Origin: Eledone cirrhosa
Lineage: Eukaryota
Direction: 5' to 3'
Assembly: GCA_964016885.1 (NCBI GenBank)
Contig: OZ024740.1
Coordinates: 420,980,001 to 421,044,000 of the forward strand
DNA length: 64,000 bases
The translations under genes were made by a program, and so were the position numbers. Positions 12,549-38,076 of this stretch are shown here, piece by piece; position 1 is the stretch's first letter, and the number at the start of each line of letters is the position of its first letter. The notes beneath the pieces are model-generated. The model made no database searches. It worked only from the letters and a program-made list of their open reading frames with translations, and was not told the DNA's origin.

Positions 12549-13786
12549 CATCATCATCATTTTACGTCCGCTTTTCCCTGCTTGCAAGGGTGAGATGGGT
12601 CTTATTCAGCACAGCATCTCTCCACTCGTCACGGTCCCTCGTCATCTCCACCGTGAGCTTCAATGATCTGAAGTCTGTTCTCACCACCTCCGCCCATATT
12701 TTTCATGGTCTACCTCTACCACGTCTTCCTTCAACTGGCATTTCCTGGCACTTCTTCACCCATCGGTCATCCTCCATGCGCATCACATGTCCATACCACC
12801 TCAGTCTCCTCTCCCGTACACTACATTCTATCCCTCTCAGACACAGTTTCTCTCTCAACACATTTATGCTGGGGCGTTCACGCACATTTACACTGCACAT
12901 CCAACGGAGCATGCTTACCTCATTTCTCTCCAACCGTTGCATATCCTCTGCAGTTGCTGCCCATGTCTCACTACCATGCAGCATCGCGCTCCTCACACAG
13001 GCATCATACAACCGGCCTTTCGTACGCAGGGAGAAACCCTTCTTCGTCAACAGAGGAAGCAGCTCCCTAAACTTCTTCCAACCCGTCCTTATTCTAGATA
13101 CTATGGCCTCGGAACACCCTCCTCCCATGCTAATCTGATCTCCTAGGTACCGGAAGCTATCCACCACTTCTATAGCGCCCTCCTGCATTTGAAAAATGTG
13201 TCTATCAATGCGACTTCTACTGTCTAATTTCCCTGTACATCTACTGCATACATATTTCTCCCTACCTGTTAGTTTGCCTGCTATCCCGCTACATCTCCTG
13301 TGTACCCAGGATCTGCATTGTGTGCATTTTATAGAATTTATGCCAGTTTCTTTTCTGCATATCGAACATGGCCATTTCCCTGACAGAATCAGGGTTTTGT
13401 CCTCTTTTCTACTCATCAACACTTTTATCTTAGCTAGGTTCACTCTCAGTCCTCTTGCTTCCAACTGCTGTTTCCATAGCCAGAATTTATTCTCTAGCTC
13501 CTCTACTGATTCTGCTATAAGAACCAGATCGTCAGCATAGAGAAGTTCCCATGGACAGCCAGTCTTAAACTCCTCTGTTATGGCTTGGAGGACTATAATG
13601 AACAAGAGCGGGCTGAGGACCGAACCCTGATGTACTCCTACTTGTATCTGGAATTCCTCACTAAACTCCATTCCTACCCTGACTTTACTGAGAGTACCTC
13701 TATACAAAGTTTGCACTGTCCTCACAAGCCATTCCTCAACACCTAGCTTCCTTAGGGACCCTATCAAAGGCCTTCTCTAGGTCAAT
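12543..13786 (-). mobile_element. RTE-clade LINE family 1, 5'-truncated (RT, PHD-type finger, 3' tail)
   Basis: ORF 12703..13767: [45 protein letters not shown]. After one premature stop the frame continues to [13 protein letters not shown] and a (tga)n tail. Confidence 0.95.
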
Positions 13787-14599: not shown

Positions 14600-17500
14600 G
14601 ACCAATCATAAGTCAGCGGCCTATGCTATCACTTCTTCCGGTTGCCTTTTGATATGATGGATGGACTAGGGAATTCTGGAGAGTCTGAAAAATCTGGACA
14701 CTCAGTGACAATGCCAAAGATAAAGACAAATTCACCTCATGCTGCCGGACGAAAAGGCAAGGACTCCTCTTTATTTCGGCCGTGGATGGCCAACATAACC
14801 CCAACCCCAGCCCCTCACCCCTCCCCGCGCCCCACTGTTCCCACCCACCAAACGCAATCCCAAACTTCAGAGTTGGTACCATGAATGTAGGCACCTTAAA
14901 AGGTCGCTCTAACGAGGTTGTAGAAATGCTTGAACGTAAGGAGGTTGATGTTTAATGTATCCAAGAGACCAGGTGGAGGGGTGGGTCTGCTAGATTCATT
15001 GTGGGTAAAAAACGATGCTATAAGCTTTTCTGGGTGGGAAATGACAATGGGCTGGGTGGGGTAGGAATCATGTTAGCAGAAAAATGGGTAGATAAGATAA
15101 TAGACGTAAATAGAGTGAACGACAGAATAATTAAAATAAGACCTGTCCTAAATAGAACTACCGTGACAGTAATATCTGCGTACGCACCCCAATCCGGACT
15201 GCCTGGCGTTATAAAAGAGAGATTCTATGAGACATTGATGCTCACTAACTCCCAAATAACTGACAGTGACTACATAGGCAATGTGTCAAGGAAAACCGTG
15301 ATATTGTCGGGGAGAAGTGTGTCCTTAATGATGATGGTGTACTTGCCATCACTGACACTGATAAGAAGATAGCTTGGAAGTGTCACTACGAAAGGCTACT
15401 AAATGAAGAGAATAATTAGGAGAAAGAGTCTTCCCCCACATCGATCCAATAGAGGGACCAGCAGTGTTAGTTGAAGGTAGTATAATAAGTAAGGCAATCA
15501 AAGATATGAAGACGGGTAAGGCGGCTGGGCCTTCGGAAATAGTTGCTGAAATGCTGAAAGCATCTGGAATGGTGGGACACACTATGGTCACCCAGATAGT
15601 AAACCAAGTCATACAGAATGGGGTCGATCCGAAGGACTGGCGTAGCAGCATCATCATTAACTGCTACAAGGGTAAAGGAGATGCCCTAGATAGGGGTAAA
15701 ACTATAGAGGCATTAAATTAATTGACCAGGTCATGAAGGTCACAGAAAAAGTAATAGCGCAACTAATCAGAGAACGAAATGATCTAGATGAAATGCAGTT
15801 TGGGTTTGTGTCAGGTAAAAGTACCACAGACGCTCTTTTCATTGTACGACAACTACAGGAGAAGTACCTAGCTAAAAGTAAACCCCTCTACTTAGCTTTT
15901 GTTGACTTAGAGAAAGCTTTTGACAGAGTCCGCCGCTCCATTATCTGGTGGGTTCTTAGAAAACTAGGTGTTGACGAATGGCTTATGAGAGCTATACAAG
16001 CCATATATAAAGAAACAGTCAGCAAGGTTAGAATTAACAACGAATATAGTGAAGAGTTTAGCGTAAAAGTTGGTGTTCATCAGGGCTCCGTCCTTAGCCC
16101 CCTCCTATTTGTTATTGCCCTTCAGGCTATAACAGAGGAGTTCAAGACCGGCTGCCCATGGGAACTCCTATACGCAGATGATCTAACGCTCATAGCTGAA
16201 TCAATGGCTGAACTAGAGAAGAAATTCCAAATATGGAAGCCTGGCCTAGAATCAAAAAGGCCTTAAAATTAACCTGTCTAAGACTAAAGTTCTAGTTTGT
16301 AGGAAGGAAAATAGGGCACTAGTCCCATCTGGGAAATGGCCATGCTCAGTGTGTAGGAAAGGAGTAGGCAGAAACTCCATTTTATGTCCCAAATGCAAAG
16401 TATGGGTGCATAAAAGATGTAGTGGGATCACAGGTAAGCTAACTAAGAATATAGATTTTATATGTGGCCGGTGCTCTGGTGCAATAAGTAGCAGCAAGTG
16501 CCCACAGAATACTAGCTCATTCCATTGCACAGATGGTTCTATAGAAATAGTGGACACCTTCCGTTACCTGGGTGACAAAATCAGCAGTGGTGGAGGGTGC
16601 TCTGAAAGTACAGTAGCTAGAGTCAGAACGGGATGGAAAAAGTTCAGAGGGCTTATACCACTATTAGCCGCTAAAGGGTTCTTACTAAAAATGAAAGGCA
16701 GGCTGTATGATGCCTGCATACGAACAGCAATGTTACATGGCAGTGAGACCTGGGCATTGTGTGCAGAGGATATACGCAGACTAGAGAGGAACGAAGCTTG
16801 CATGCTCCGCTGGATGTGTAATAGTAATATACGTGAACGGCAAAGCATAAACGAACTAAGGGAGAAATTAGGAATAAGAGGGATCAGATGATGTTTACTC
16901 GAGAGAAGACTACGTTGGTATGGTCACGTGATGCGCATGAAAGACGACAGTTGTATAAAAAAGTGCAGGGCGATAAAAATAGACGGTAGCCACGGAGTAG
17001 GCAGACCCAGAAAAACCTGGGACGACTTGATAAATTCCGACCTCACACACTTACACCTCTCAAAGACAATGTCACTGGACCGAGATCTTTGGTGCTACAC
17101 AGTAATACAGAAGACCCGCCTGGCCTAAGTACAAAGCGAAACCTACAGCCAGTAGGCACCTCTAACAAAAATACACCCCGTCCCACTACACCCACCCCAT
17201 CCACACCACTCCTTTCAATGTAAAGTTATGTTGGTACCACAACATCCAGGCCGAAACAAATGAGGTTGTGTAGGTGTCACGACAAAAAAAACACACAGTC
17301 CACGTAATGTGGCCGTGTAGGTAACACGGTAAAAACCTCCCAGTCCAGACTGTAAACGTGGTTGGTGTTAGGAAGGGCATCCAGCCGTAGAAAACCCGCC
17401 AGACAATCCTATACGAGCAAGTCAACCAATCTTGCCTCAAGTGGGAAAATTCCCGTCCAAACCCATGCTAGCGTGGAAGATGGACGTTAAACGATGATGA
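14600..17500 (+). mobile_element. RTE-clade LINE family 2, near full length but inactivated (APE, RT, PHD-type finger, 3'UTR)
   Basis: APE motifs GTMNVGTL, V*CIQETRW, GGVGIML, ISAYAPQ. RT motifs QFGFVSGKSTTDALF, FVDLEKAFDRV, QGSVLSPLLF, YADD. Internal deletion near 15280, plus stops and frameshifts. Ends aacccatgctagcgtggaagatggacgttaaacgatgatga. Confidence 0.95.
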
Positions 17501-22151: not shown

Positions 22152-23250
22152 TACCACTTTACAGAGGGGGCAGGGTACATTTTATTGTGGAACCCACACT
22201 ACCACTTTACAGAGGGGGCAGGGTACATTTTATTGTGGAACCCACACTACCACTTTACAGAGGGGGCAGGGTACATTTTATTGTGGAACCCACACTACCA
22301 CTTTACAGAGGGGGCTGGGTACATTTTATTGTGGAACCCACACTACCACTTTACAGAGGGGGCTGGGTACATTTTATTGTGGAACCCACACTACCACTTT
22401 ACAGAGGGGGCTGGGTACATTTTATTGTGGAACCCACACTACCACTTTACAGAGGGGGCTGGGTACATTTTATTGTGGAACCCACACTACCACTTTACAG
22501 AGGGGGCAGGGTACATTTTATTGTGGAACCCACACTACCACTTTACAGAGGGGGCTGGGTACATTTTATTGTGGAACCCACACTACCACTTTACAGAGGG
22601 GGCAAGGTACATTTTATTGTGGAACCCACACTACCACTTTACAGAGGGGGCTGGGTACATTTTATTGTGGAACCCACACTACCACTTTACAGAGGGGGCA
22701 GGGTACATTTTATTGTGGAACCCACACTACCACTTTACAGAGGGGGCTGGGTACATTTTATTGTGGAACCCACACTACCACTTTACAGAGGGGGCTGGGT
22801 ACATTTTATTGTGGCACCCACACTACCACTTTACAGAGGGGGCAAGGTACATTTTATTGTGGAACCCACACTACCACTTTACAGAGGGGGCTGGGTACAT
22901 TTTATTGTGGCACCCACACTACCACTTTACAGAGGGGGCAGGGTACATTTTATTGTGGAACCCACACTACCACTTTACAGAGGGGGCTGGGTACATTTTA
23001 TTGTGGAACCCACACTACCACTTTACAGAGGGGGCAGGGTACATTTTATTGTGGAACCCACACTACCACTTTACAGAGGGGGCAGGGTACATTTTATTGT
23101 GGAACCCACACTACCACTTTACAGAGGGGGCTGGGTACATTTTATTGTGGAACCCACACTACCACTTTACAGAGGGGGCTGGGTACATTTTATTGTGGAA
23201 CCCACACTACCACTTTACAGAGGGGGCTGGGTGCATTTTATCGTGGTCCC
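22152..23250 (-). repeat. 48-bp minisatellite, about 23 copies, retroelement-derived
   Basis: Unit accactttacagagggggc(t/a)gggtacattttattgtggaacccacact; period 48 (22153, 22201). Confidence 0.97.
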
Positions 23251-25170: not shown

Positions 25171-25509
25171 CAATAGATAGTTGGAGAGTGGCAGACAAAG
25201 GTCTTGTTGAGTGGTATGTGTGTGTTATATTTATGTATATATATATGTGTGTATGTGTTATATTTATGTATATGTGTGTGTATGTATATTTATATACATG
25301 TATGTATATTATTCACTTTTCAACCTGTCTAATTCTTCCCACATTTAACCACACATTTTCAACTTTCTATAAAGGAACATTTTATTATATTTTCTCACAA
25401 CTAAATTTAAATGTCTGAAGCCATAAAATTATTTTCTTTTTTCTCAAATAATTGGCAATATTTTCATGTTACTTTTTAAAAAATTGTTTTCCTAGTTTCA
25501 GTAAATCAA

Positions 25510-26607
25510 GTGTGACCATGTTAATGACCTCCTTTTAGACTATAGTCAACTGAAGTGTGACCATGTATGTGTACCTCCTTTTAGACTATAGTCAACTGAA
25601 GTGTGACCATGTATGTGTACCTCCTTTTAGACTATAGTCAACTGAAGTGTGACCATGTATGTGTACCTCCTTTTAGACTATAGTCAACTGAAGTGTGACC
25701 ATGTATGTGTACCACCTTTTAGACTATAGTCAACTGAAGTGTGACCATGTATGTGTACCACCTTTTAGACTATAATCAACTGAAGTGTGACCATGTATGT
25801 GTACCTCCTTTTAGACTATAGTCAACTGAAGTGTGACCATGTATGTGTACCACCTTTTAGACTATAGTCAACTGAAGTGTGACCATGTATGTGTACCACC
25901 TTTTAGACTATAGTCAACTGAAGTGTGACCATGTATGTGTACCACCTTTTAGACTATAGTCAACTGAAGTGTGACCATGTATGTGTACCTCCTTTTAGAC
26001 TATAGTCAACTGAAGTGTGACCATGTATGTGTACCACCTTTTAGACTATAGTCAACTGAAGTGTGACCATGTATGTGTACCTCCTTTTAGACTATAGTCA
26101 ACTGAAGTGTGACCATGTATGTGTACCTCCTTTTAGACTATAGTCAACTGAAGTGTGACCATGTATGTGTACCACCTTTTAGACTATAGTCAACTGAAGT
26201 GTGACCATGTATGTGTACCTCCTTTTAGACTATAGTCAACTGAAGTGTGACCATGTATGTGTACCACCTTTTAGACTATAGTCAACTGAAGTGTGACCAT
26301 GTATGTGTACCACCTTTTAGACTATAGTCAACTGAAGTGTGACCATGTATGTGTACCACCTTTTAGACTATAGTCAACTGAAGTGTGACCATGTATGTGT
26401 ACCACCTTTTAGACTATAGTCAACTGAAGTGTGACCATGTATGTGTACCTCCTTTTAGACTATAGTCAACTGAAGTGTGACCATGTATGTGTACCACCTT
26501 TTAGACTATAGTCAACTGAAGTCTGACCATGTATGTGTACCTCCTTTTAGACTATAGTCAACTGAAGTCTGACCATGTATGTGTACCTCCTTTTAGACTA
26601 TAGTCAA
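25510..26607. repeat. 46-bp minisatellite, about 24 copies
   Basis: Unit gtgtgaccatgtatgtgtacc(t/a)ccttttagactatagtcaactgaa; period 46 (25601, 25647). Confidence 0.97.
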
Positions 26608-26675
26608 ATGCATAATCAACTTTCAAGAGTGAAAAATGAAGTTAGCCTGTATATGTGTGTGTATGTGTGTTTATG

Positions 26676-26734
<59 letters not shown>

Positions 26735-26806
26735 ATATATATATATATATATATAGTATATTAAAAACATTTTTTTTTAAATTTTCGCTCTACATGGCTG
26801 AATACA

Positions 26807-27214
26807 ATAAATGTAATCTGAGTTTTTCAAATATTAATAATAACATTCGATTCGTTGAGAAACAAGCCTCATTTTAACGCCATTTATCACTCGTAAACAG
26901 GATACTGACTGGCTAGTCTGATGATATACTGATCTGACTGATCAGCAGTCTGCTAATATGCAAATCAGGCCAATCAGTCACTAGAAAATAGCATATATTT
27001 TCACTAGCTCTGACAGTTGGCAGGTGAGTGGTGAGCTGTACTGATGAAGGGTAATACCCAGAAACAGTGTCTGCAGTTCTGTTTACATGCCAATACAAGA
27101 GTAAGAATGAAGGGTTCATTCTACTGACATGGCTTTAAAAATGAGGCTTGTTTGCATAATTGCAAACGTATCGAATGTTATTATTAATATTCGAAACACT
27201 CAGATTACATTTAT
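26807..27214. mobile_element. Foldback element with arms of about 80 bp enclosing two hammerhead motifs
   Basis: Arms 26807-26883 and 27129-27214 (ataaatgtaatctgagt..atattaataataacattcgat..aaacaagcctcatttt..gccat and its reverse complement). (TA)n tracts on both sides. Confidence 0.8.
27033..27079 (+). ncRNA. Type I hammerhead ribozyme motif
   Basis: Stem I gagctgta/tgcagttc (8 bp, 2 G-U), core CTGATGA 27041-27047, stem II gggt-aat-accc, GAAAC 27061-27065, short stem III, GUC triplet at 27069-27071. Confidence 0.75.
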
Positions 27215-27416
27215 CATATATATATATATATATATAGGAAAATGTTTAACCCCGACGGCAGAGCTCAAGCCGTTTCAGTGGCTATTTCTGGACTAAATTA
27301 GAATTTTTAACGTGGTAAATAAATATATAATATATATATATATATACACACACATATAATTTAGTTTTTCAAGCTATTTTGATAAACATTTCAATGTTCC
27401 CTTTATTTCATTTCAG

Positions 27417-27519
27417 GTCGGAGTAGTAAGAAAATACCTAGAAAAAGATCAAACTTTAAAGGTGAATGATCTTAAGGATGCAAATGCCTTACTTGATGGG
27501 GGTGATGTTCTCTTCACTG
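27417..27519 (+). CDS. DDAH: Internal exon of dimethylarginine dimethylaminohydrolase (DDAH-like)
   Basis: Polypyrimidine tract and tttcag acceptor; phase 0 start; translates [34 protein letters not shown](G); donor g|gtaagt in phase 1. Matches human DDAH1 [34 protein letters not shown] as I recall it. Absent from the ORF track. Confidence 0.9.
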
Positions 27520-27685
27520 GTAAGTACTTTCTGATCCCTATATACTGTCTCATGTTTTGGTTTGGGTGTTGTTTCAGGGGATGATGGGAGATCTGACCTT
27601 CTTTGAGGAGTTACACTAAAAGGCTTGGCAGAAAAGTTCATAGGCTGACTATGAAGAATTGATGCTAAAGCTGTGAAATCTTGTA

Positions 27686-30600
27686 TGTAAAGTGGTTGTG
27701 CGAGTGTCTTGACAAAAAGCACCCAGAACACACTGTAAAGTGGTCATGTAGATGTCACAACAAAAAGCACCCAGCACACACTGTAAAGTGGTTGTGTAGG
27801 TGTTACAACAGAAAGCACCCAGAACACACTGTAAAGTGGTCATGTAGATGTCACAACAAAAAGCACCCAGCACACACTGTAAAGTGGTTGTGTAGGTGTT
27901 ACAACAGAAAGCACCCAGAACACACTGTAAAGTGGTCATGTAGTGTTACAACAGAAAGCACCCAGCACACACTGTAAAGTGGTTGTGTAGGTGTTACAAC
28001 AGAAAGCACCCAGAACACGCTGTAAAGTGGTCATGTAGTGTTACAACAGAAAGCACCCAGCACACACTGTAAAGTGGTTGTGTAGGTGTTACAACAGAAA
28101 GCACCCAGAACACGCTGTAAAGTGGTCATGTAGTGTTACAACAGAAAGCACCCAGCACACACTGTAAAGTGGTTGTGTAGGTGTTACAACAGAAAGCACC
28201 CAGAACACGCTGTAAAGTGGTCATGTAGTGTTACAACAGAAAGCACCCAGCACACACTGTAAAGTGGTTGTGTAGGTGTTACAACAGAAAGCACCCAGAA
28301 CACACTGTAAAGTCGTCATGTAGATGTCACAACAAAAAGTACCCAGCACACACTGTAAAGTCGTCATGTAGTGTTACAACAGAAAGCACCCAGCATACAC
28401 TGTAAAGTGGTTGTGTAGGTGTTACAACAGAAAGCACCCAGAACACACTGTAAAGTCGTCATGTAGATGTCACAACAAAAAGCACCCAGCACACACTGTA
28501 AAGTCGTCATGTAGTGTTACAACAGAAAGCACCCAGCACACACTGTAAAGTGGTTGTGTAGGTCTTACAACAGAAAGCACCCAGCACACACTGTAAAGTG
28601 GTTGTGTAGGTGTTACAACAGAAAGCACCCAGCACACACTGTAAAGTGGTTGTGTAGATGTTACAACAGAAAGCACCCAGCACACACTGTAAAGTGGTTG
28701 TGTAGGTGTTACAACAGAAAGCACCGAGCACACACTGTAAAGTGGTTGTGTAGATGTTACAACAGAAAGCACCCAGCACACACTGTAAAGTGGTTGTGTA
28801 GGTGTTACAACAGAAAGCACCCAGCACACACTGTAAAGTGGTTGTGTCGGTGTTACAACAGAAAGCACTCAGAACACACTGTAAAGTCGTCATGTAGTGT
28901 TACAACAGAAAGCACCCAGAACACACTGTAAAGTGGTCATGTAGTGTTACAACAGAAAGCACCCATCACACACTGTAAAGTGGTTGTGTAGGTGTTACAA
29001 CAAAAAGCACCCAGACCACACTGTAAAGTGGTTGTGTAGGTGTTACAACAGAAAGCACCCAGCACACACTGTAAAGTGGTTGTGTAGGTGTTACAACAGA
29101 AAGCACCCAGCATACACTGTAAAGTCGTCATATAGTGTTACAACAGAAAGCACCCATCATACACTGTAAAGTGGTTGTGTAGGTGTTACAACAGAAAGCA
29201 CGCAGCACACACTGTAAAGTGGTTGTGTAGGTGTTACAACAGAAAGCACCCAGCACACACTGTAAAGTCGTCATGTAGTGTTACAACAGAAAGCACCCAG
29301 CACACACTGTAAAGTGTTTGTGTAGGTGTTACAACAGAAAGCACCCAGCACACACTGTAAAGTGGTTGTGTAGGTGTTACAACAGAAAGCACCCAGCATA
29401 CACTGTAAAGTGGTTGTGTAGGTGTTACAACAGAAAGCACCCAGCATACACTGTAAAGTGGTTGTGTAGGTGTTACAACAGAAAGCACCCAGCATACACT
29501 GTAAAGTGGTTGTGTAGGTGTTACAACAGAAAGCACCCAGCACACACTGTAAAGTGGTTGTGTAGATGTTACAACAGAAAGCACCCAGCATACACTGTAA
29601 AGTGGTTGTGTAGGTGTTACAACAGAAAGCACCCAGCATACACTGTACAGTCGTCATGTAGTGTTACAACAGAAAGCACCCAGCATACACTGTAAAGTGG
29701 TTGTGTAGGTGTTACAACAGAAAGCACCCAGCACACACTGTAAAGTCGTGATGTAGATGTTACAACAGAAAGCACCCAGCACACACTGTAAAGTGGTTGT
29801 GTAGGTGTTACAACAGAAAGCACCCAGCACACACTGTAAAGTCGTCATGTAGGTGTCACAACAGAAAGCACCCAGCACACACTGTAAAGTGGTTGTGTAG
29901 ATGTTACAACAGAAAGCACCCAGCACACACTGTAAAGTGGTTGTGTAGGTGTTACAACAGAAAGCACCCAGCACACACTGTAAAGTCGTCATGTAGTGTT
30001 ACAACAGAAAGCACCCAGAACACACTGTAAAGTGGTCATGTAGTGTTACAACAGAAAGCACCCAGCACACACTGTAAAGTGGTTGTGTAGGTGTTACAAC
30101 AAAAAGCACCCAGACCACACTGTAAAGTGGTTGTGTAGGTCTTAAAACAGCAAGCACCCAGCGCACACTGTAAAGTGGTTGTGTAGGTGTTACAACAAAA
30201 AGCACCCAGACCACACTGTAAAGTGGTTGTGTAGGTGTTAAAACAGCAAGCACCCAGCACACACTGTAAACTGGTCATGTAGGTGTTACAACAGAAAGCA
30301 CCCAGCACACACTGTAAAGTGGTTGTGTAGGTGTTACAACAGAAAGCACCCAGCATACACTGTAAAGTGGTTGTGTAGGTGTTACAACAGAAAGCACCCA
30401 GCATACACTGTAAAGTGGTTGTGTAGGTGTTACAACAGAAAGCACGCAGCACACACTGTAAAGTGGTTGTGTAGGTGTTACAACAGAAAGCACCCAGCAC
30501 ACACTGTAAAGTTGTCATGTAGTGTTACAACAGAAAGCACCCAGCATACACTGTACAGTCGTCATGTAGTGTTACAACAGAAAGCACCCAGCATACACTG

Positions 30601-33600
30601 TAAAGTGGTTGTGTAGGTGTTACAACAGAAAGCACCCAGCACACACTGTAAAGTGGTTGTGTAGGTGTTACAACAGAAAGCACCCAGCACACACTGTAAA
30701 GTCGTCATGTAGTGTTACAACAGAAAGCACCCAGCACACACTGTAAAGTCGTGATGTAGGTGTTACAACAGAAAGCACCCAGCACACACTGTAAAGTGGT
30801 TGTTTAGGTGTTACAACAGAAAGCACCCAGCATACACTGTAAAGTGGTTGTGTAGGTGTTACAACAGAAAGCACCCAGCATACACTGTAAAGTGGTTGTG
30901 TAGGTGTTACAACAGAAAGCACCCAGCATACACTGTAAAGTGGTTGTGTAGGTGTTACAACAGAAAGCACCCAGCACACACTGTAAAGTGGTTGTGTAGG
31001 TGTTACAACAGAAAGCACCCAGCACACACTATAAAGTGGTTGTGTAGGTGTTACAACAGAAAGCACCCAGCACACACTGTAAAGTGGTTGTGTAGGTGTC
31101 ACAACAGAAAGCACCCAGCATACACTGTACTGTGGTTGTGTAGGTGTTACAACAGAAAGCACCCAGCACACACTATAAAGTGGTTGTGTAGGTGTTACAA
31201 CAGAAAGCACCCAGCATACACTGTAAAGTGGTTGTGTAGGTGTTACAACAGAAAGCACCCAGCATACACTGTAAAGTGGTTGTGTAGGTGTTACAACAGA
31301 AAGCACCCAGCATACACTGTAAAGTGGTTGTGTAGGTGTTACAACAGAAAGCACCCAGCATACACTGTAAAGTGGTTGTGTAGATGTTACAACAGAAAGC
31401 ACCCAGCACACACTGTAAGGTGGTTGTGTAGGTGTTACAACAGAAAGCACCCAGCATACACTGTAAAGTGGTTGTGTAGATGTTACAACAGAAAGCACCC
31501 AGCATACACTGTAAAGTGGTTGTGTAGATGTTACAACAGAAAGCACCCAGCACACACTGTAAAGTGGTTGTGTAGGTGTTACAACAGAAAGCACCCAGCA
31601 TACACTGTAAAGTCGTCATGTAGTGTTACAACAGAAAGCACCCAGCACACACTGTAAAGTCGTCATGTAGTGTTACAACAGAAAGCACCCAGCACACACT
31701 GTAAAGTCGTCATGTAGTGTTACAACAGAAAGGACCCAGCACACACTGTAAAGTCGTCATGTAGTGTTACAACAGAAAGCACCCAGCACACACTGTAAAG
31801 TGGTTGTGTAGGTGTTACAACAGAAAGCACCCAGCACACACTGTAAAGTCATGTAGTGTTACAACAGAAAGCACCCAGCATACACTGTAAAGTGGTTGTG
31901 TAGGTGTTACAACAGAAAGCACCCAGCACACACTGTAAAGTGGTTGTGTAGATGTTACAACAGAAAGCACCCAGCACACACTGTAAAGTGGTTGTGTAGG
32001 TGTTACAACAGAAAGCACCCAGCACACACTGTAAAGTGGTTGTGTAGGTGTTATAACAGAAAGCACCCAGCATACACTGTAAAGTCGTCATGTAGTGTTA
32101 CAACAGAAAGCACCCAGCATACACTGTAAAGTGGTTGTGTAGGTGTTACAACAGAAAGCACCCAGCACACACTGTACTGTGGTTGTGTAGGTGTTACAAC
32201 AGAAAGCACCCAGCACACACTGTAAAGTCGTCATGTAGTGTTACAACAGAAAGCACCCAGCACACACTGTAAAGTCGTGATGTAGGTGTTACAACAGAAA
32301 GCACCCAGCACACACTGTAAAGTGGTTGTGTACGTGTTACAACAGAAAGCACCCAGCACACACTGTAAAGTGGTTGTGTAGGTGTTACAACAGAAAGCAC
32401 CCAGCATACACTGTAAAGTGGTTGTGTAGGTGTTACAACAGAAAGCACCCAGCATACACTGTAAAGTGGTTGTGTAGGTGTTACAACAGAAAGCACCCAG
32501 CACACACTGTAAAGTGGTTGTGTAGATGTTACAACAGAAAGCACCCAGCACACACTGTAAAGTGGTTGTGTAGGTGTTACAACAGAAAGCACCCAGCACA
32601 CACTGTAAAGTGGTTGTGTAGGTGTTATAACAGAAAGCACCCAGCATACACTGTAAAGTCGTCATGTAGTGTTACAACAGAAAGCACCCAGCATACACTG
32701 TAAAGTGGTTGTGTAGGTGTTACAACAGAAAGCACCCAGCACACACTGTACTGTGGTTGTGTAGGTGTTACAACAGAAAGCACCCAGCACACACTGTAAA
32801 GTCGTCATGTAGTGTTACAACAGAAAGCACCCAGCACACACTGTAAAGTCGTGATGTAGGTGTTACAACAGAAAGCACCCAGCACACACTGTAAAGTGGT
32901 TGTGTAGGTGTTACAACAGAAAGCACCCAGCACACACTGTAAAGTGGTTGTGTAGGTGTTACAACAGAAAGCACCCAGCATACACTGTAAAGTGGTTGTG
33001 TAGGTGTTACAACAGAAAGCACCCAGCATACACTGTAAAGTGGTTGTGTAGGTGTTACAACAGAAAGCACCCAGCACACACTGTAAAGTGGTTGTGTAGG
33101 TGTTACAACAGAAAGCACCCAGCACACACTATAAAGTGGTTGTGTAGGTGTTACAACAGAAAGCACCCAGCACACACTGTAAAGTGGTTGTGTAGGTGTT
33201 ACAACAGAAAGCACCCAGCACACACTGTAAAGTGGTTGTGTAGGTGTTACAACAGAAAGCACCCAGCACACACTATAAAGTGGTTGTGTAGGTGTTACAA
33301 CAGAAAGCACCCAGCACACACTGTAAAGTGGTTGTGTAGGTGTTACAACAGAAAGCACCCAGCACACACTGTAAAGTGGTTGTGTAGATGTTACAACAGA
33401 AAGCACCCAGCACACACTGTAAAGTGGTTGTGTAGGTGTTACAACAGAAAGCACCCAGCACACACTGTAAAGTGGTTGTGTAGTTACAACAGAAAGCATC
33501 CAGCACACACTGTAAAGTCGTCATGTAGTGTTACAACAGAAAGCACCCAGCACACACTGTAAAGTCGTCATATAGTGTTACAACAGAAAGCACCCAGCAC

Positions 33601-35137
33601 ACGCTGTAAAGTCGTCATGTAGTGTTACAACAGAAGGCACCCAGCACACACTGTAAAGTCGTCATGTAGTGTTACAACAGAAAGCACCCAGCACACACTG
33701 TAAAGTGGTTGTGTAGGTGTTACAACAGAAAGCACCCAGCACACACTGTAAAGTGGTTGTGTAGTTACAACAGAAAGCACCCAGCACACACTGTAAAGTC
33801 GTCATGTAGTGTTACAACAGAAAGCACCCAGCACACACTGTAAAGTCGTCATGTAGTGTTACAACAGAAAGCACCCAGCATACACTGTAAAGTGGTTGTG
33901 TAGATGTTACAACAGAAAGCACCCAGCACACACTGTAAAGTGGTTGTGTAGGTGTTACGACAGAAAGCACCCAGCACACACTGTAAAGTGGTCATGTAGT
34001 GTTACAACAGAAAGCACCCAGCATACACTGTAAAGTGGTTGTGTCAGTGTTACAGCAAGCACCCAGCACACACTGTAAAGTGGTTGTGTAGGTGTTACAA
34101 CAGAAAGCACCCAGCACACACTGTAAAGTGGTTGTGTAGGTGTTACAACAGAAAGCACCCAGCACACACTGTAAAGTGGTTGTGTAGGTGTTACAACAGA
34201 AAGCACCCAGCACACACTGTAAAGTGGTTGTGTAGGTGTTACAACAGAAAGCACCCAGCACACACTGTAAAGTCGTCATGTAGTGTTACAACAGAAAGCA
34301 CCCAGCATATACTGTAAAGTGGTTGTGTCGGTGTTACAACAGCAAGCACCCAGCACACACTGTAAAGTGGTTGTGTAGGTGTTACAACAGAAAGCACCCA
34401 GCACACACTGTAAAGTGGTTGTGTAGGTGTTACAACAGAAAGCACCCAGCACACACTGTAAAGTGTTTGTGTAGGTGTTACAACAGAAAGCACCCAGCAC
34501 ACACTGTAAAGTGTTTGTGTAGGTGTTACAACAGAAAGCACCCAGCACACACTGTAAAGTGTTTGTGTAGGTGTTACAACAGAAAGCACCCAGCACACAC
34601 TGTAAAGTGTTTGTGTAGGTGTTACAACAGAAAGCACCCAGCACACACTGTAAAGTGTTTGTGTAGGTGTTACAACAGAAAGCACCCAGCACACACTGTA
34701 AAGTGGTTGTGTAGGTGTTACAACAGAAAGCACCCAGCACACACTGTAAAGTGGTTGTGTAGGTGTTACAACAGAAAGCACCCAGCACACACTGTAAAGT
34801 GGTTGTGTAGATGTTACAACAGAAAGCACCCAGCACACACTGTAAAGTGTTTGTGTAGGTGTTACAACAGAAAGCACCCAGCACACACTGTAAAGTGGTT
34901 GTGTAGGTGTTACAACAGAAAGCACCCAGCACACACTGTAAAGTGGTTGTGTAGGTGTTACAACAGAAAGCACCCAGCACACACTGTAAAGTGGTTGTGT
35001 AGATGTTACAACAGAAAGCACCCAGCACACACTGTAAAGTGGTTGTGTAGGTGTTACAACAGAAAGCACCCAGCATACACTGTAAAGTGGTTGTGTCGGT
35101 GTTACAGCAAGCACCCAGCACACACTGTAAAGTGGTT
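27686..35137 (+). repeat. 47/48-bp minisatellite, about 7.45 kb and 155 copies, retroelement-derived
   Basis: Unit ctgtaaagtggttgtgtaggtgttacaacagaaagcacccagcacaca, with 47-bp variant ctgtaaagtcgtcatgtagtgttac... Copy number estimated from length/period. Confidence 0.98.
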
Positions 35138-35270
35138 GGTGTTAGGAAGGACATTCAACCATAGAAACATTTCTGTATGAGCAAGACAGTCACCTGACCT
35201 GACTTTCCTCAAACAGGGCCATCTATCTAACCCATGCTAGGACAATAGATGTTAAATGATATTGATGATG
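35138..35270 (+). mobile_element. RTE family-2-like 3' tail terminating the array
   Basis: ggtgttaggaaggacattcaaccatagaaac..tatgagcaagacagtcacctgacc..ctaacccatgctaggacaatagatgttaaatgatattgatgatg is colinear with 19589-19740. Confidence 0.85.
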
Positions 35271-36231: not shown

Positions 36232-37729
36232 TTCTGTTGTCTAAATGATCTGGTACAACTATGGTAGATCAGTATCTGTTGTCTAAATAGTCTGGTACAA
36301 CTATGGTAGATCAGTATCTGTTGTCTAAATAGTCTGGTACAACTATGGTAGATCAGTATCTGTTGTCTAAATAGTCTGGTACAACTATGGTAGATCAGTA
36401 TCTGTTGTGTAAATAGTCTGGTACAACTGTGGTAGATCAGTATCTGTTGTGTAAATAGTCTGGTACAACTGTGGTAGATCAGTATCTGTTGTCTAAATAG
36501 TCTGGTACAACTGTGGTAGATCAGTATCTGTTGTCTAAATAGTCTGGTACAACTATGGTAGATCAGTATCTGTTGTGTAAATAGTCTGGTACAATGATGG
36601 TAGATCAGTATCTGTTGTCTAAATAGTCTGGTACAACTATGGTAGATCAGTATCGGTTGTGTAAATAGTCTGGTACAACTGTGGTAGATCAGTATCTGTT
36701 GTGTAAATAGTCTGGTACAACTATGGTAGATCAGTATCTGTTGTCTAAATAGTTTGGTACAACTATGGTAGATCAGTATCTGTTGTCTAAATAGTCTGGT
36801 ACAACTATGGTAGATCAGTATCTGTTGTGTAAATAGTCTGGTACAACTGTGGTAGATCAGTATCTGTTGTGTAAATAGTCTGGTACAACTGTGGTAGATC
36901 AGTATCTGTTGTCTAAATAGTCTGGTACAACTATGGTAGATCAGTATCTGTTGTCTAAATAGTCTGGTACAACTATGGTAGATCAGTATCTGTTGTCTAA
37001 ATAGTCTGGTACAACTATGGTAGATCAGTATCTGTTGTGTAAATAGTCTGGTACAACTGTGGTAGATCAGTATCTGTTGTGTAAATAGTCTGGTACAACT
37101 GTGGTAGATCAGTATCTGTTGTCTAAATAGTCTGGTACAACTATGGTAGATCAGTATCTGTTGTCTAAATAGTCTGGTACAATTATTGTAGATCAGTATC
37201 TGTTGTGTAAATAGTCTGGTATAACTATGGTAGATCAGTATCTGTTGTGTAAATAGTCTGGTACAACTGTGGTAGATCAGTATCTGTTGTCTAAATAGTC
37301 TGGTACAACTATGGTAGATCAGTATCTGTTGTCTAAATAGTCTGGTACAACTATGGTAGATCAGTATCTGTTGTCTAAATAGTCTGGTACAACTATGGTA
37401 GATCAGTATCTGTTGTGTAAATAGTCTGGTACAATGATGGTAGATCATATTGTGTTGTCTAAATAGTCTGGTACAACTGTGGTAGATCAGTATCTGTTGT
37501 CTAAATGATCTGGTACAACTGTGGTAGATCATATTGTGTTGTCTAAATAGTCTGGTACAAATATGGTAGATCATATTGTGTTGTCTAAATAGTCTGGTAC
37601 AACTATGGTAGATCATATTGTGTTGTCTAAATAGTCTGGTACAACTGTGGTAGATCAGTATCTGTTGTCTAAATAGTCTGGTACAACTATGGTAGATCAG
37701 TATCTGTTGTCTAAATAGTCTGGCACAAC
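36232..37729. repeat. 42-bp minisatellite, about 36 copies, plus about 1 more unit at 38077-38129
   Basis: Unit tctgttgt(c/g)taaatagtctggtacaact(a/g)tggtagatcagta. ORF 36186..37739(-) is its translation. Confidence 0.97.
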
Positions 37730-37731
37730 AT

Positions 37732-38076
37732 GGAGGCACATGGCTTAGTGGTTAGAGCATTGGCCTTGGAATCGAAAGGTTGTGAGTTCAATTCTCAGAC
37801 CGGGTATTGTGTTGTTTCCTTGAGCAAGACACTTTATTTCACATTGCTCCAGTTTACTTAGCTGTAGAAATGAGATGATAGGGACTGGGGTCCAAATCAT
37901 TCCACTGCAAAGTGATCGTGGAGGTGCCATGGCAAAAAAAAGCACCCAGCACTCACTGTAAATGAGGTTGGTGTTAAGAAGGGCATCCAGCTGTAAAAAT
38001 CAAGCCAGAATCAGTTCCCGTCCCACCCTTGCAAGCAAGGAAAAAGCGGACGTAAAATGAAATGATGATGATGATG
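37732..38076 (+). mobile_element. SINE family A inserted into the 42-bp array
   Basis: Full head, CORE, module and tail; the array sequence resumes (aactatggtagatcagtatctg) directly after the (gat)n tail. Confidence 0.9.

Follow-up and report, generated by a model that had tools for sequence, protein, structure and literature searches.

A hammerhead-bearing repeat inserted between TA tracts in the Eledone cirrhosa genome and its likely place among Penelope-related retrozymes

The locus and its hammerhead motifs

The window analysed here is a stretch of 64,000 nucleotides from Eledone cirrhosa (GenBank assembly GCA_964016885.1, contig OZ024740.1, forward-strand positions 420,980,001 to 421,044,000), and all coordinates below are those of the window. 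The element under study lies between two (TA)n tracts, at 26672–26761 and 27215–27236, to the left and right of the insertion target. It comprises a tail on the minus strand (26779–26806), which extends past the usual 3′ end of the repeat and occurs on the inverted arm only; an inverted, 5′-truncated second copy, also on the minus strand (26807–26883), which consists of the 3′ part of the monomer and carries no hammerhead; and a main arm on the plus strand (26879–27214), which is a 5′-truncated monomer with an untailed end. Five nucleotides at the junction (26879–26883) are common to both arms. The stretch before the 3′ end (27094–27214, plus strand) is occupied by a predicted run of hairpins, the first of which has a compensatory pair, and a similar run occurs in a sister family (family B, described below).

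Outside the element and relevant only as context, an exon-like segment of 103 nt (27417–27519, plus strand) lies between AG and GT, matches DDAH1 with an E-value of 0.0018 and is found 345 nt after the predicted ribozyme cut site, on the element’s strand. The segment gave no Pfam match, a search of the genome with PF19420 gave none either, and short motifs revealed no further DDAH exons in the window or in the 100 kb either side, so the host gene call rests on one exon. The initial annotation had placed the element on the sense strand of a DDAH intron, about 345 nt upstream of an exon; the strand, the distance and a DDAH1-like exon all stand, but the gene is represented by that single exon. 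Long, homogeneous minisatellite arrays surround the exon at 22152–23246 (48 nt), 25508–26607 (46 nt) and 27686–35138 (48 nt), with others at 36233–37733 (42 nt) and 40345–64000 (35 nt), the last of which runs for more than 23 kb with a strong GC skew. Retroelement fragments encoding a reverse transcriptase (RT) plus a PHD finger lie at 12706–13776 (minus strand) and 15700–16888 (plus strand).

The main arm contains a type I hammerhead motif at 27033–27079 on the plus strand (motif 1), with an 8-bp stem I (27033–27040 paired with 27072–27079), a core made up of CUGAUGA (27041–27047), GAAA (27061–27064) and a GUC ending at 27071, after which the cut is predicted, and a 4-bp stem II with an A.A apposition at its base. 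Every one of these elements, including the GUC and the A-A at the base of stem II, had been listed in the initial annotation and was confirmed in place; in addition, stem/loop III carries a 3-nt deletion after 27065. The motif lies within a hammerhead domain with an extended stem I (27017–27093, plus strand), which in the family has 21 pairs and a 2-nt bulge. A strict descriptor matched motif 1 alone within the 64-kb window and matched none of 4,000 random 250-mers with the same dinucleotide make-up. The proposed check against Rfam hammerhead models came back negative: there were no matches at gathering threshold in the whole window, and the 13 weak matches obtained up to E = 10 in 26300–27700 did not include any hammerhead family.

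Motif 1 has the three-helix order of CUGANGA, GAAA and NUH, and has A.A in place of the usual paired base of helix II (G10.1-C11.1). A mismatch at this place has a precedent in the axolotl retrozyme ribozyme HHR_Amex2, with U.U rather than A.A at the base of stem II, which self-cleaves 22% as a monomer and more as a dimer (PMC7229834). Constrained folding energies put the cost of the active monomer fold at about 7 kcal/mol, and the domain is predicted to fold independently of the inverted arms. Judged by its sequence, the downstream hammerhead motif (27033–27079) is real. Hammerheads that have a palindromic stem III, fold as dimers and show low activity in vitro have been described (PMC4209133). 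Motif 1 shares with known dimer-type hammerheads a palindromic stem III suited to dimers and an extra base after A9, and differs from them in a shorter stem II (4 bp against 7–8), a longer stem I (21 bp against 4–5) and the missing G10.1-C11.1. As a side observation, other hammerhead families near GIY-YIG ORFs (L064, L065, L068, L074; L066, L070, L073) share a U.U mismatch at the base of stem II.

An upstream stretch within an octamer-repeat region (26912–27008, plus strand; motif 2) had been read as a second hammerhead. The letters are present, and a relaxed descriptor of them likewise seldom matches by chance (0 of 4,000 random 250-mers), but only 2 bp of ‘stem II’ close in register and the active fold, when imposed, costs 13.4–18.7 kcal/mol, as against about 7 for motif 1. 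The region is a 33-nt octamer repeat that in the family reads CUGCUGA or CUGCUAA, with CUGAUGA in just one of 274 family octamer-repeat units, and few family members share the changes, at 26914 and 26921, that build the motif in the window copy (two of its 15 family-rare letters). Since motif 2 is made by family-rare changes and has a costly fold, with neither an inherited core nor foldable helices II and III, it is likely not a ribozyme and would be a near-match selected post hoc out of thousands of copies. In one other copy, the 33-nt octamer unit has expanded into a long minisatellite (L231:460-1350).

The repeat family and the state of the window copy

A 436-nt query gave 3,084 candidates in the 3.0-Gb genome. 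Exact matches numbered 1,305 for the 34-nt core and 5,103 for an 18-mer downstream, outside the ribozyme, with none for the reversed control of either. When loci were mapped on a natural copy, the end of a monomer ran into the start of the next; 29 full monomers were recovered, the tail of each passing straight to the next monomer start, together with 10 tandem pairs set 353–444 nt apart, in six of which both cores were intact. Two or more consecutive hammerhead units are therefore found in the family (these 10 pairs), with one unit in the window copy. Base counts gave a GC content of about 35% over the 3′ 255 nt, and the repeat has the form expected of a retrozyme: a short (150–450 bp), low-GC, non-coding monomer with a type I hammerhead. 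A literature search, with most subscription papers and bioRxiv supplements outside its reach, found no description of this repeat family.

The core was intact in 22 of 36 family copies. A 36-pair structure evaluated on those 36 copies plus the window had 93.6% of cells paired, compared with 33–44% in slid controls, and its pairing was reached by none of 500 shuffles, a control that ignores relatedness; a single pair, which is not part of the ribozyme, accounted for 14 of the 16 two-sided changes. Stem I stays paired in its common variants, and none of 14 polymorphic columns lies in the core. Divergence within the family was 3.1% in the core and 5.0–5.7% in the flanks, a small difference of the kind expected because copies decay after insertion. 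ADAR-type editing before insertion was considered and rejected, A>G and T>C changes occurring at 12.8 and 12.4 per 1,000, respectively. A diverged subfamily in a sequencing run under another organism code (X4), the make-up of which is unspecified, lends weak support: its common differences within the core, stem II and stem III are confined to loop II and a 10% variant.

A profile search of the genome found sister families of the hammerhead repeat, in which 11–12 of 12 core bases are kept, compared with 1–10 of 16 stem bases, while all stems pair and stem III is palindromic. Family B (L192, L283, L285, L184), which forms tandem arrays with a period of 396–468 nt, aligns colinearly with the window family over 173 of 296 columns; family C is represented by L103/L137 and L280, with a further related copy at L156:1887. 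The base of stem II is A.A in the window family, U.U or U-A in family B and G-C in family C and the related copy. The search for homologous copies and stem covariation that had been called for thus found thousands of copies and, across families, a core that is kept while stems change and stay paired. The core proved better conserved than the stem bases across families and only slightly better conserved than the flanks within the family, so that conservation of the core amid changing but paired stems appears to find its stronger evidence in the comparison between families.

Stem III of the family is a 10-nt self-complementary stretch, in keeping with the earlier view of a hammerhead built for dimer pairing. 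The window copy is 3 nt shorter there, and the predicted energy of the stem III self-duplex falls from −8.8 kcal/mol in the family to −4.2 kcal/mol, a loss that would halve dimer pairing. This short form has 32 exact matches genome-wide, against 2,582 for the long form. As a subfamily trait the short loop III was rejected, since 30 of the 32 matches, when read, proved to sit on mixed subfamily backgrounds; the deletion seems to recur on unrelated backgrounds, like a mutation hot spot. The cost of the active monomer fold is the same in the window copy and a family copy (7.0 kcal/mol), so the case for a weaker window copy derives entirely from dimer pairing. Overall drift is ordinary: 15 of the 336 letters of the window copy are rare in the family, which is mid-range among the 29 monomers. 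With a shortened stem III and no tandem partner, the window copy is predicted to be unlikely to cut a DDAH-like pre-mRNA, contrary to the earlier proposal that it was set to cut the intron or release a piece of about 69 nt. The locus itself is an ordinary mobile-element insertion, one among thousands, and a role as a control switch for the surrounding gene is improbable.

Insertion anatomy and the nature of the element

The two arms of the window copy (26807–26883 and 27129–27214) are 81% identical over 86 columns, and the left arm runs on to about 26779, so that a tailed inverted arm (26779–26883) faces an untailed main arm (26879–27214). The same one-tail pattern emerged from a survey of 68 loci picked by the 18-mer outside the ribozyme, of which 66 gave an end. 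Head-to-head pairs made up 34 of the 66, with one tailed and one untailed arm in 30, both arms scored untailed in four and none with tails on both; the other 32 were single-arm ends, 23 untailed and nine tailed. Arm ends are of two classes, separated by about 24 nt, and most lie next to TA tracts; inner arm ends differ from copy to copy and arm lengths vary freely. The targets are microsatellites, and target duplications are unreadable in TA tracts. Some other insertions (L324/L325, L336/L337, L346) are perfect palindromes whose centre of symmetry is the six-base stretch across the cut site, a form that could come from the annealing of two cDNAs ending at that point.

We conclude that the element is probably a decayed copy of a protein-free repeat of about 400–440 nt with a single type I hammerhead, likely inserted into TA repeats by a Penelope-like RT/endonuclease acting in trans. 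On the sequence features examined, it would belong with the non-LTR retrozymes or non-autonomous Penelope-like elements; a 2026 preprint treats the former as non-autonomous Penelope derivatives (bioRxiv 10.64898/2026.07.22.740005). Copy number, arrangement, tail and TA targets all support the original suggestion of a small non-autonomous ribozyme-carrying element of this kind. Animal non-LTR retrozymes (Cervera and de la Pena 2020, PMC7229834; Li et al. bioRxiv 10.64898/2026.07.22.740005) likewise have a type I hammerhead and a monomer that is non-coding, low in GC and a few hundred nucleotides long, and occur in thousands of copies, as monomers and tandem dimers, alongside Penelope-like elements; they differ in forming arrays, where our family mostly forms truncated head-to-head pairs with a one-sided tail, and the 10-nt self-complementary stem III sets it further apart from them.

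The anatomy also resembles that of endonuclease-positive Penelope-like insertions, for which PMC8557442, PMC3846280 and PMC11167929 report partial tandems, an inverted 5′-truncated copy, a tail at one end, microsatellite targets and a hammerhead upstream of two end positions; an inverted 5′-truncated copy with a one-sided tail of about 24 nt is what we see in 30 of 34 pairs. Unlike those elements, the repeat has no ORF, a tail of about 24 rather than 30–40 nt and no parent element found to share it. In vitro, a Penelope-like enzyme has been shown to nick each strand and extend it, with synthesis beginning at two positions inside the RNA that delimit the tail (PMC11167929). The mechanism we propose would begin with the transcription of source loci holding two or more tandem monomers, probably from an octamer-plus-TATA module, the hammerheads of which would cleave best as dimers via the self-complementary stem III. 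The enzyme would then make a nick in each strand of the DNA and begin cDNA synthesis at two sites near the monomer end that lie about 24 nt from each other, and the two cDNAs would end up joined head-to-head, in many cases across a few bases common to both. The window copy would be one such product that has since drifted, and little or no cleavage is predicted for it within a DDAH-like pre-mRNA. The genome is rich in GIY-YIG/RT elements, in line with this account; against it, only one of nine predicted retrozyme dimers cleaved in vitro in a published test (bioRxiv 2026.07.22.740005).

The copies might instead be stumps of the pLTR of a full-length autonomous Penelope-like element, with no independent retrozyme family; most copies are indeed 5′-truncated, Penelope pLTRs carry hammerheads (PMC4209133), and our reading covered a few hundred of several thousand loci, with searches that score top candidates only. 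However, an ORF encoding RT plus GIY-YIG is absent from the element and from the 64-kb window, none was found attached to the repeat as its body, and a search of 79 free 5′ flanks, 50 GIY-YIG loci and about 50 Neptune loci turned up no autonomous parent that uses the hammerhead repeat as its pLTR. In the 29 full monomers, the tail is followed by the start of another monomer at the place where an autonomous element would carry its ORF, and sister family B forms arrays of 396–468-nt period, which makes the stump explanation unlikely. A MITE or foldback DNA transposon, with terminal inverted repeats of about 80 bp, a TA target and a chance hammerhead-like interior, would account for the inverted arms and TA flanks; the inverted arms of about 80 bp noted at the outset do exist, but fixed terminal inverted repeats they are not, given inner ends that vary among copies, single arm ends at 32 of 66 loci, one-sided tails, tandem monomers and a core conserved across families while stems change. 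We regard this as extremely improbable.

That two working ribozymes cut the intron of a DDAH-like transcript as it is made, close to its 3′ splice site, or free a 69-nt fragment and so affect the host transcript, seems very unlikely too. The core of motif 1 is intact, lies on the exon’s strand 345 nt upstream and belongs to a domain predicted to fold without interference from the arms, and the rarity by chance of motif 2, with two of the 15 rare letters building it, might be taken to favour such a role. Against this, motif 2 is not inherited and needs 13–19 kcal/mol to fold, the stem III deletion is found again in copies of unrelated subfamilies, motif 1 has no tandem partner and the host gene is known from one exon. 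Many of the thousands of copies must in any case land in introns, as do about 43% of retrozyme copies in Xenopus (bioRxiv 10.64898/2026.07.22.740005).

Possible cut-site starts, a candidate partner enzyme and a promoter-like module

Taking the element as a retrozyme-like repeat moved in trans, we offer as a tentative and rather doubtful reading that the genome holds a fossil record of the ribozyme at work in vivo, with cut-site starts from cleaved RNA, two-RNA insertions made with a Neptune-type enzyme and an octamer-plus-TATA promoter common to the superfamily. Such a record would bear on the in vivo role of Penelope-type hammerheads, and the 5′ ends of this family could show whether cleaved RNA is a substrate. 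In a first sample, five of 124 arms began with the base that directly follows the cut, and arm ends were more frequent in the 30 nt after it (36 of 89) than in the 30 nt before (8 of 53; p 0.0015). Among 110 other arms, none began at that base (18 of 75 ends after the cut versus 10 of 57 before), and no start at the cut site was seen among 58 family-B arms. Genome-wide, edge patterns for a start at +1 matched 265 times, with 186 matches at 0 and 104 at +2, out of about 3,062; on reading, real ends accounted for 22 of 50 at +1, seven of 43 at 0 (12 with palindrome centres) and 15 of 48 at +2, a few being indels on inspection.

Real ends at +1 are about 3.5 times those at +2, a ratio inseparable from T/TG microhomology with TA/TG flanks, and the probability of no +1 excess given that microhomology ranges from 0.006 to 0.68 by assumption; either this microhomology or stalling of the RT in stem I could explain the apparent excess. 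In the one reconstituted Penelope system, cleavage was dispensable and RNA ends at the cut site were not observed (PMC11167929). A literature search on cut-site truncation, which likewise left out most subscription papers and bioRxiv supplements, found no account of it.

Mixed junctions could name the enzyme moving a retrozyme. At three loci the hammerhead repeat is joined directly to one Neptune-type family: L132 and L268 are head-to-head junctions, the first obeying the one-tail rule and the second breaking it, while in L162 a piece of the RT, 100 nt long, lies in line with the repeat, flanked by TA tracts. Two of the three came from the 79 free 5′ flanks and the third from 30 Neptune loci; a fourth mixed locus adjoins a different family, not the Neptune-type one. 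The RT of the joined family was identified by Pfam, and its clade, which we take to be Neptune, was assigned from motifs. The Neptune repeat has no sequence in common with the hammerhead repeat, and its tail is about 36 nt long. Elsewhere, the breaks at two independent mixed junctions (L238, L251) fall at nearly the same place in the Neptune-type ORF, to within about 2 nt, and the Neptune-type pLTR (L132:4063, L063:5922 and related loci) contains a core resembling that of a hammerhead, which begins with UUGA and has GAAA and a 4-bp stem II that covaries, but no evident stem I.

A putative promoter module is kept in families A, B and C. It consists of an octamer, ATGCAAAT (26958–26965, plus strand), 88–94 nt before the core in the three families, and a TATA-like stretch (26994–27001, plus strand), 46–51 nt before the core in all three, for which a promoter role is inferred. 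The promoter of newt satellite 2 is said to have an octamer. In the window copy, a 9-nt deletion after 26981 shortens the spacing between octamer and core. Newt satellite 2 is similarly a hammerhead-bearing tandem repeat with a possible internal promoter, reported, as cited in PMC2220036, to be of the snRNA type, compared with which the putative promoter here has its octamer and TATA-like stretch about 43 nt apart.
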